Source: Escherichia coli
GTDB taxonomy: Bacteria; Pseudomonadota; Gammaproteobacteria; Enterobacterales; Enterobacteriaceae
Length of the DNA stretch: 64,000 bases
Assembly (NCBI RefSeq): GCF_003334335.1
Contig: NZ_QOWQ01000029.1
Direction: 5' to 3' (one strand)
The notes beneath the pieces were generated by a model, which was given only the letters and a program-made list of their open reading frames with translations, made no database searches and was not told the DNA's origin. A program made the translations under genes and the position numbers. Shown in pieces: positions 34,376 through 34,712 of the stretch. Every line of letters begins with the position of its first letter. Position 1 is the stretch's first letter.

Positions 34376-34712
34376 TTTTATGTGAGCAGAAGATATTCAT
34401 CAGAAACGATTATGTAAATCATTTTATTTTGCCAACGGCCTCATTGTCGAAAGAAAAGAATACGCCCGTATTTCCTGAATGGATTGACTTTTTTATCCAA
34501 CCACACTTCAGCGCACTGCGTTTAAAAAATGCCTCATTCTTATGCGGAATATCATCATTTCATCATGATGTCTTTGATGAGCGGTGAACACAATACACTT
34601 GCGCTGTCTCTTCAGGATGAATCCCCTGGTCTGGTGCCTGTGGGCTGATGTTGCAGCAAAGCTAAGGTCGCTTAAACGCTACTCAGTATTCACTTTTCAG
34701 AGGATGAAATTT

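Follow-up and report, generated by a model that had tools for sequence, protein, structure and literature searches.

The 43 codons that lie open in frame directly in front of ypjA are very probably non-coding. They occupy positions 34584 to 34712 (+ strand) of the window, which is the whole 64,000-nucleotide stretch of K-12-like Escherichia coli DNA that I analysed, and they would represent the promoter-proximal part or the 5' untranslated leader of the gene, free of stops in the ypjA frame by happenstance. The same high likelihood holds jointly for the position of the start: translation of YpjA begins at ATG 34713, and the annotated start stands. From this ATG, 8 nt downstream of AGAGGA, translation would yield a 29-residue, classical-looking signal peptide, and the force that conserves the upstream stretch would be constraint on DNA and RNA (promoter elements, the transcript start and the ribosome-binding region) rather than on a peptide. 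The preliminary description of this DNA had mentioned a leader region as one alternative, and that alternative fits the comparison with relatives.

The frame of ypjA is closed upstream by TGA codons at 34566-34568, 34575-34577 and 34578-34580, the last two standing in tandem (34575-34580, +). From there it continues without stops, through GCG (34581) to GTG 34584, its first start codon, and further in-frame ATGs in or after the open stretch are found at 34617, 34704 and 34713. The corresponding entry in the ORF listing is 34584-39293 (+), 1569 aa with a GTG start. Frame inspection confirmed the coordinates and the peptide of the 43 open codons that had been claimed upstream of the ypjA start; the first codon of this peptide (MNTIHL...) is indeed at 34584, but it is a GTG and not the ATG as which it had been read. 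At the local G+C content of 40%, with a stop probability of 0.063 per codon, the analytic probability that 44 codons are free of stops is 0.057, and 20,000 shuffles give 0.056 for the same 44-codon run. If the window holds ~60 genes (a rough estimate, the genes themselves not having been counted), then about three chance extensions of such length are expected in it, again as a rough estimate. The 43-codon open run is no more than chance would give.

The DNA upstream of ypjA is present at two loci per genome, as found by megablast in 5,426 complete E. coli genomes, and the second of these is ymgJ-ycgI, which adjoins minE. The module paralogous to this locus is ~370 bp long (34342-34712, +) and 85-97% identical to MG1655; between the two loci, identity is 85-88% in the distal part and 93-97% between 34540 and 34719. 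In K-12, the ymgJ-ycgI locus covers the entire open stretch of ypjA as far as 34683, but its gene, unlike the intact ypjA, has been cut down to a pseudogene in which the leader is joined to the last ~100 barrel codons. In other strains and in Escherichia albertii, the autotransporter gene at this locus is intact and ypjA-like, and its initiation region (Shine-Dalgarno sequence and ATG) is the same. The ycgI of MG1655 (contig L006, 3466-3908) is a relic of an internal deletion, in which the 'MNTIHLRCLFRMNPLVWCLRADVAAELRSLRRY' / MNTIHLRCLF... frame enters a barrel remnant ending in ...NWSF, and its junction, after window-equivalent 34683, falls within TACTCAG, the motif of which other strains have a tandem duplication.

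Two further genes touch on this module. The small gene ymgJ is intact at the minE-side locus of K-12 but broken upstream of ypjA, where a stop in place of codon 12 and an indel of 1 nt interrupt its relic (34382-34568, +). No intact counterpart of ymgJ was seen in the E. albertii-type leader (contig L134, 5780-6000), a region ~59% identical to E. coli, whose sole better-kept part is one 26-nt block (34392-34417), and ymgJ may be an ORF of recent origin or one specific to a lineage. The module also begins inside the annotated 3' end of the pinH invertase pseudogene fragment (34135-34374, +). Since the final ~30 nt of this pseudogene (34342-34374) belong to the module common to the ymgJ locus, pinH ends on its 3' side at a rearrangement junction and not in invertase sequence. 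A Hin/Gin-like invertible promoter switch, prompted by the pinH fragment, was considered and rejected, because only a truncated relic of pinH is left, and the 3' end of this relic is merely the junction with the shared module; that ycgV has the same leader was likewise rejected, there being no such leader in front of it in K-12. Finally, an E. coli-type ypjA leader and 5' end, with an upstream part identical to the window, also occur in contig JAIJJM010000899.1 (L012, 1147 nt); this contig was binned as 'MAG: Collinsella sp.' but is almost certainly mis-binned Escherichia DNA.

To follow the frame in relatives, I gathered 115 copies; they came from complete genomes, from contigs in databases and from metagenome contigs scanned once for an exact pattern, and 32 of their 184-nt upstream sequences are distinct. 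All 111 indel-free E. coli-type copies keep the frame open. This carries no weight, because only 4.1% of the possible substitutions in the stretch are able to create a stop, and about one stop is expected among the 25 distinct substitutions observed. Substitution counts within E. coli were not used against coding either, because the extension (9 synonymous versus 16 non-synonymous, distributed 8:7:10 over the codon positions) looks much like the first 50 true ypjA codons, which at 26:40 synonymous to non-synonymous are almost as unconstrained. Divergence among the pinH-adjacent ypjA orthologues is too low for a direct frame test.

The frame is broken in two kinds of relative, and these were taken as deciding the matter; both belong to the ymgJ-minE paralogous locus and not to the pinH-adjacent ypjA locus. 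The first carries a 7-nt tandem duplication of TACTCAG (window-equivalent 34680-34686), so that neither GTG 34584 nor ATG 34617 is any longer in the reading frame of the gene. Three independent metagenome contigs have this allele, as do at least 12 complete E. coli genomes, the latter at 100% identity across 241 nt. Behind the duplication the gene is intact, with 1124 open codons in contig L042; in strain 266917_2, which has the duplication allele, PGAP annotates a 1122-aa CDS from the usual ATG, without a pseudogene flag and with a barrel complete to the final residue. The second is E. albertii (L134, GCA_027459905.1), where an intact 1475-aa autotransporter lies between ymgI and minE behind a recognisably homologous leader. 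Here a TAG five codons past the GTG and a 1-nt insertion leave just 12 open codons, and therefore only the ATG three codons upstream of the annotated start and the annotated ATG itself as possible starts. Metagenome contig L107 has the same leader arrangement. The preliminary description had tied the fate of an extension to conservation of the upstream region at the protein level; when this was examined, the frame proved to be broken in intact ymgJ-minE paralogues, by the 7-nt duplication in E. coli and by the insertion and TAG in E. albertii. A peptide-pattern scan of genome contigs gave no series of orthologues, its only two loci being a mis-binned E. coli-like fragment (113 nt upstream) and an unrelated Elusimicrobia protein, and no useful relatives came from searching proteins with the E. 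albertii-type N-terminus.

Among the candidate start codons, ATG 34713 is the only one with a usable Shine-Dalgarno sequence. AGAGGA (34699-34704, +) ends 8 nt before this codon, and its duplex with the 16S 3' end has a free energy of -5.8 kcal/mol at a spacing of 8. The same motif directly abuts ATG 34704, for which pairing with the anti-Shine-Dalgarno sequence amounts to -5.2 kcal/mol at a spacing of zero, GAGG ending at 34703. GTG 34584 and ATG 34617 lack a Shine-Dalgarno sequence, reaching -1.9 kcal/mol with the anti-Shine-Dalgarno sequence at an unusable spacing. AGAGGA is invariant in every copy compared, E. albertii included. ATG 34713 is also the start given by RefSeq (b2647) and by PGAP, with a product of 1526 aa, and it is the start that had earlier been picked from the sequence with its preceding AGGA.

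It is very unlikely that the true start is instead ATG 34704, which would give the product MKF-MNRTSPYY, three residues beyond the annotation. This codon shares the ypjA frame and does not vary in any copy; it is kept in E. albertii too, where the open frame has no earlier start codon, and MKFMNR would still be acceptable as a normal n-region. However, its spacing to the Shine-Dalgarno sequence is zero, and RefSeq, PGAP and the E. albertii gene caller alike chose the downstream ATG. Its invariance was counted against it as well, because the codon sits within a 38-nt initiation block that is kept as a whole.

Read from ATG 34713, ypjA (b2647; 34713-39293, +) encodes a 1526-aa autotransporter of the AIDA/Ag43 type (type Va), with PF16168 AIDA repeats and a complete C-terminal beta-barrel; the NCBIfam model TIGR01414 matches over model positions 5-432 of 432, ending at residue 1526 (E = 4.5e-98). 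Its first 29 residues (34713-34799, +), MNRTSPYYCRRSVLSLLISALIYAPPGMA followed by AF, form what looks like a classical Sec signal peptide, judged by hydropathy and inspection. The n-region is basic (R3, R10, R11), the hydrophobic core has its maximum at residues 12-23, the Kyte-Doolittle maximum is 2.7 across SVLSLLISALIYA, and small residues occupy -3 and -1 of the cleavage region G-M-A before A, a site placed by eye. In a review table, YpjA/EhaD appears with a proposed role in biofilm formation (PMC7312957). An 85-aa antisense ORF inside ypjA (36069-36326, -; MLSLTTVLNLQNAAIIKSG...) is 'CDS87' of a PIRT-seq study, which chose it for SPA-tagging and has a 'Y' beside it in a supplementary table (PMC12350097).

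A real N-terminal extension at the pinH-adjacent ypjA locus would start at GTG 34584 or ATG 34617 and create an extended signal sequence of 70 or 59 residues. Some autotransporters do have extended signal peptides (Pfam ESPR), a precedent from general knowledge; the frame is open in each ypjA-locus copy examined, and the extension peptide contains basic residues and a mildly hydrophobic patch, PLVWCLWADVAA. However, a Pfam scan of residues 1-239 of the extended YpjA gave no ESPR (PF13018), the only matches being AIDA repeats from residue 89 onwards, with residues 1-88 empty even at E <= 10, and the 43-aa peptide has no match in NCBIfam. With neither upstream start preceded by a Shine-Dalgarno sequence, the stretch frame-shifted or stopped in intact relatives, an unbroken E. 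coli frame that is uninformative at about one expected stop and an open run of the chance probability given above, such an extension is extremely improbable. The suggestion of an extended autotransporter signal peptide, or of alternative initiation, made in the preliminary description found no support, given the missing ESPR, the lack of initiation signals and the broken frames.

What E. coli and E. albertii do share in the leader is a series of invariant nucleotide blocks (all +). Block A comprises 26 nt (34546-34571); block B comprises 13 nt (34584-34596) and holds CACAAT (34589-34594), a candidate -10; block C comprises 33 nt (34601-34633), with a 3' end complementary to ypjA codons 3-6. 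A 9-nt run follows at 34642-34650, and block E, of 38 nt (34685-34722), is the translation-initiation region with the Shine-Dalgarno sequence, ATG 34704, ATG 34713 and codons 2-3. Between these runs lie patches in which the two species differ at most bases. In permutations with the same number of mismatches, the longest run has P = 0.004, and the top three runs jointly were matched in 0 of 20,000 trials (P < 5e-5). Between the species, the leader is 82% identical and the signal-peptide codons are 70% identical; the value is 59% both at the start of the passenger and in the distal upstream region. Furthermore, within E. coli there are fewer variable sites in the 184-nt leader than in the opening 150 nt of the coding sequence (P = 3e-4, Fisher test). 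Long invariant runs without synonymous-type changes, scrambled patches of fixed length and indels that shift the frame yet are tolerated form a pattern that one expects from non-coding regulatory DNA or RNA, not from a peptide. I infer from this sequence pattern that the conserved blocks represent a promoter, a 5'-UTR and a translation-initiation region.

Block A holds a perfect 10-bp palindrome, CATCATGATG (34561-34570), which is unchanged in 115 of 115 copies and in E. albertii and is a candidate protein-binding site. The genes behind the leader are of unequal length: those at L134 6171-10598, L133 4188-7556 and window 34713-39293 encode 1475, 1122 and 1526 aa, respectively. Taken with the higher identity of leader and signal codons (82% and 70%) than of the passenger start (59%), this suggests that passenger domains have been swapped or remodelled behind a constant 5' module.

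A promoter can be placed in the leader tentatively. It would be a weak one, consisting of a candidate -35, ATGATG (34565-34570), an 18-nt spacer and the candidate -10 CACAAT (34589-34594), with transcription starting near 34601. The two hexamers lie within invariant blocks A and B, and across species the sequence of the spacer is scrambled and its length is kept. If the transcription start near 34601 is right, then GTG 34584 lies outside the ypjA mRNA. The ATGATG/CACAAT pair has a PWM score of 4.3, below the best matches of shuffled sequence (mean 9.0), and a scan of the + strand for consensus sigma-70 promoters found no convincing site. Inspection by eye found no RfaH ops site and no GATC/OxyR-type site, Rfam gave no match at E <= 1 in 34100-34900, and literature searches on ypjA returned nothing about its start or promoter.

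The complementarity between the end of block C and the coding sequence raises the alternative of a structured regulatory 5'-UTR, in which 34629-34640 would pair with codons 3-6 (34718-34728) and the Shine-Dalgarno sequence would lie in a small hairpin loop, such that initiation is gated. RNAalifold predicts both helices. In E. albertii, GGTCTGTT and AACAGACC would form 8 perfect pairs, and the pair 34634:34723 takes three forms: ypjA-type copies have G-C, the ymgJ-locus copies G-U and E. albertii U-A. This is nonetheless an unlikely reading. The single-sequence fold is not better than shuffles (z = +0.57), and the covariation term of RNAalifold is unfavourable (+0.43). Of the 37 predicted pairs, 3 are changed on both sides, among few independent lineages, and 34634:34723 is the one covarying pair in the leader-start helix, the outer pairs of which are broken in two lineages. 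Rfam has no matching family, and by estimate chance would supply ~0.5 complements of 6 bp when a leader of 130 nt is set against a target of 20 nt.

A second alternative reads the leader in another frame, as encoding a translated upstream ORF of 39 aa (34529-34648, +; 34 aa in E. albertii) that would serve as a leader peptide for ypjA. I consider this quite unlikely, and the ORF is probably not a gene. PGAP does annotate it, as a 'hypothetical protein' or 'ATPase' (WP_001120794.1); it is open in E. albertii with the same stop position, and four nucleotide changes in otherwise conserved parts (ACA>ACG, CTT>TTA, CCT>CCC) are synonymous in its frame. On the other hand, it has no Shine-Dalgarno sequence (+1.2 kcal/mol) and no family match, it shows 3 synonymous versus 17 non-synonymous changes within E. 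coli, and some contigs have lost its start (ATG>ACA, ATG>ATA) and one its stop. Of the 33 codons that it shares with E. albertii, 7 are replaced (dN/dS ~1 by hand estimate), and in that species the ORF begins at another position. The ORF is kept mainly where all three frames are kept, because the DNA is invariant there. It has neither the conserved start with a ribosome-binding site nor the purifying selection by which a leader peptide is recognised. The 'ATPase' label recurs in many NCBI entries (for example WP_088213392.1) and looks like a propagated annotation error, because an ATPase of 39 residues without a family match is very unlikely.

A broader proposal, possible though doubtful, is that a small Escherichia family of AIDA-type autotransporter genes has a dedicated cis-regulatory module in common, namely the proximal leader (34546-34722), or, alternatively, that a 34-39-aa upstream ORF is translated from this leader. 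The members of the family would be ypjA/ehaD, the gene at the ymgJ-minE locus and its E. albertii counterpart. The module would join a weak, factor-dependent promoter to a 5'-UTR pairing with codons 3-6 and holding the Shine-Dalgarno sequence in the loop of a hairpin. If true, this could explain the laboratory silence of these adhesins.

With 43 open codons in a conserved non-coding leader, the annotated ypjA start stands and the finding is an ordinary one. The current start is confirmed, and the wider importance of this is small. The case does illustrate that an upstream frame unbroken over hundreds of E. coli genomes is no evidence of coding when divergence is low. The map of invariant blocks in the ypjA leader, common to the ymgJ-ycgI locus and E. 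albertii, may be of use to research on cryptic E. coli adhesins, and the blocks are obvious targets for dissection of the promoter and 5'-UTR.

Two known systems invite comparison with this leader. The first is the ESPR (PF13018) of type V autotransporters such as Ag43, Hbp and EspP, to which the likeness is that the extension would precede a normal Sec signal peptide on an AIDA/Ag43-type protein. In contrast to ESPR systems, the ypjA extension is without the ESPR motif, its upstream starts are without a Shine-Dalgarno sequence and its frame is shifted or stopped in intact relatives; that is, each defining ESPR feature tested (motif, protein-level conservation and usable initiation signal) is absent. 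The second is agn43/flu (Ag43), the untranslated leader of which is reportedly necessary for full expression. The ypjA leader differs from it in having no detectable sequence similarity, blastn in E. coli genomes finding just the ypjA and ymgJ loci, and the absence of a GATC site from 34529-34712 on inspection means that, unlike in agn43, there is no sign of a Dam/OxyR-type switch. What the two leaders have in common is their layout: a long conserved stretch, running from the presumed promoter to the start codon of an E. coli AIDA-type autotransporter.
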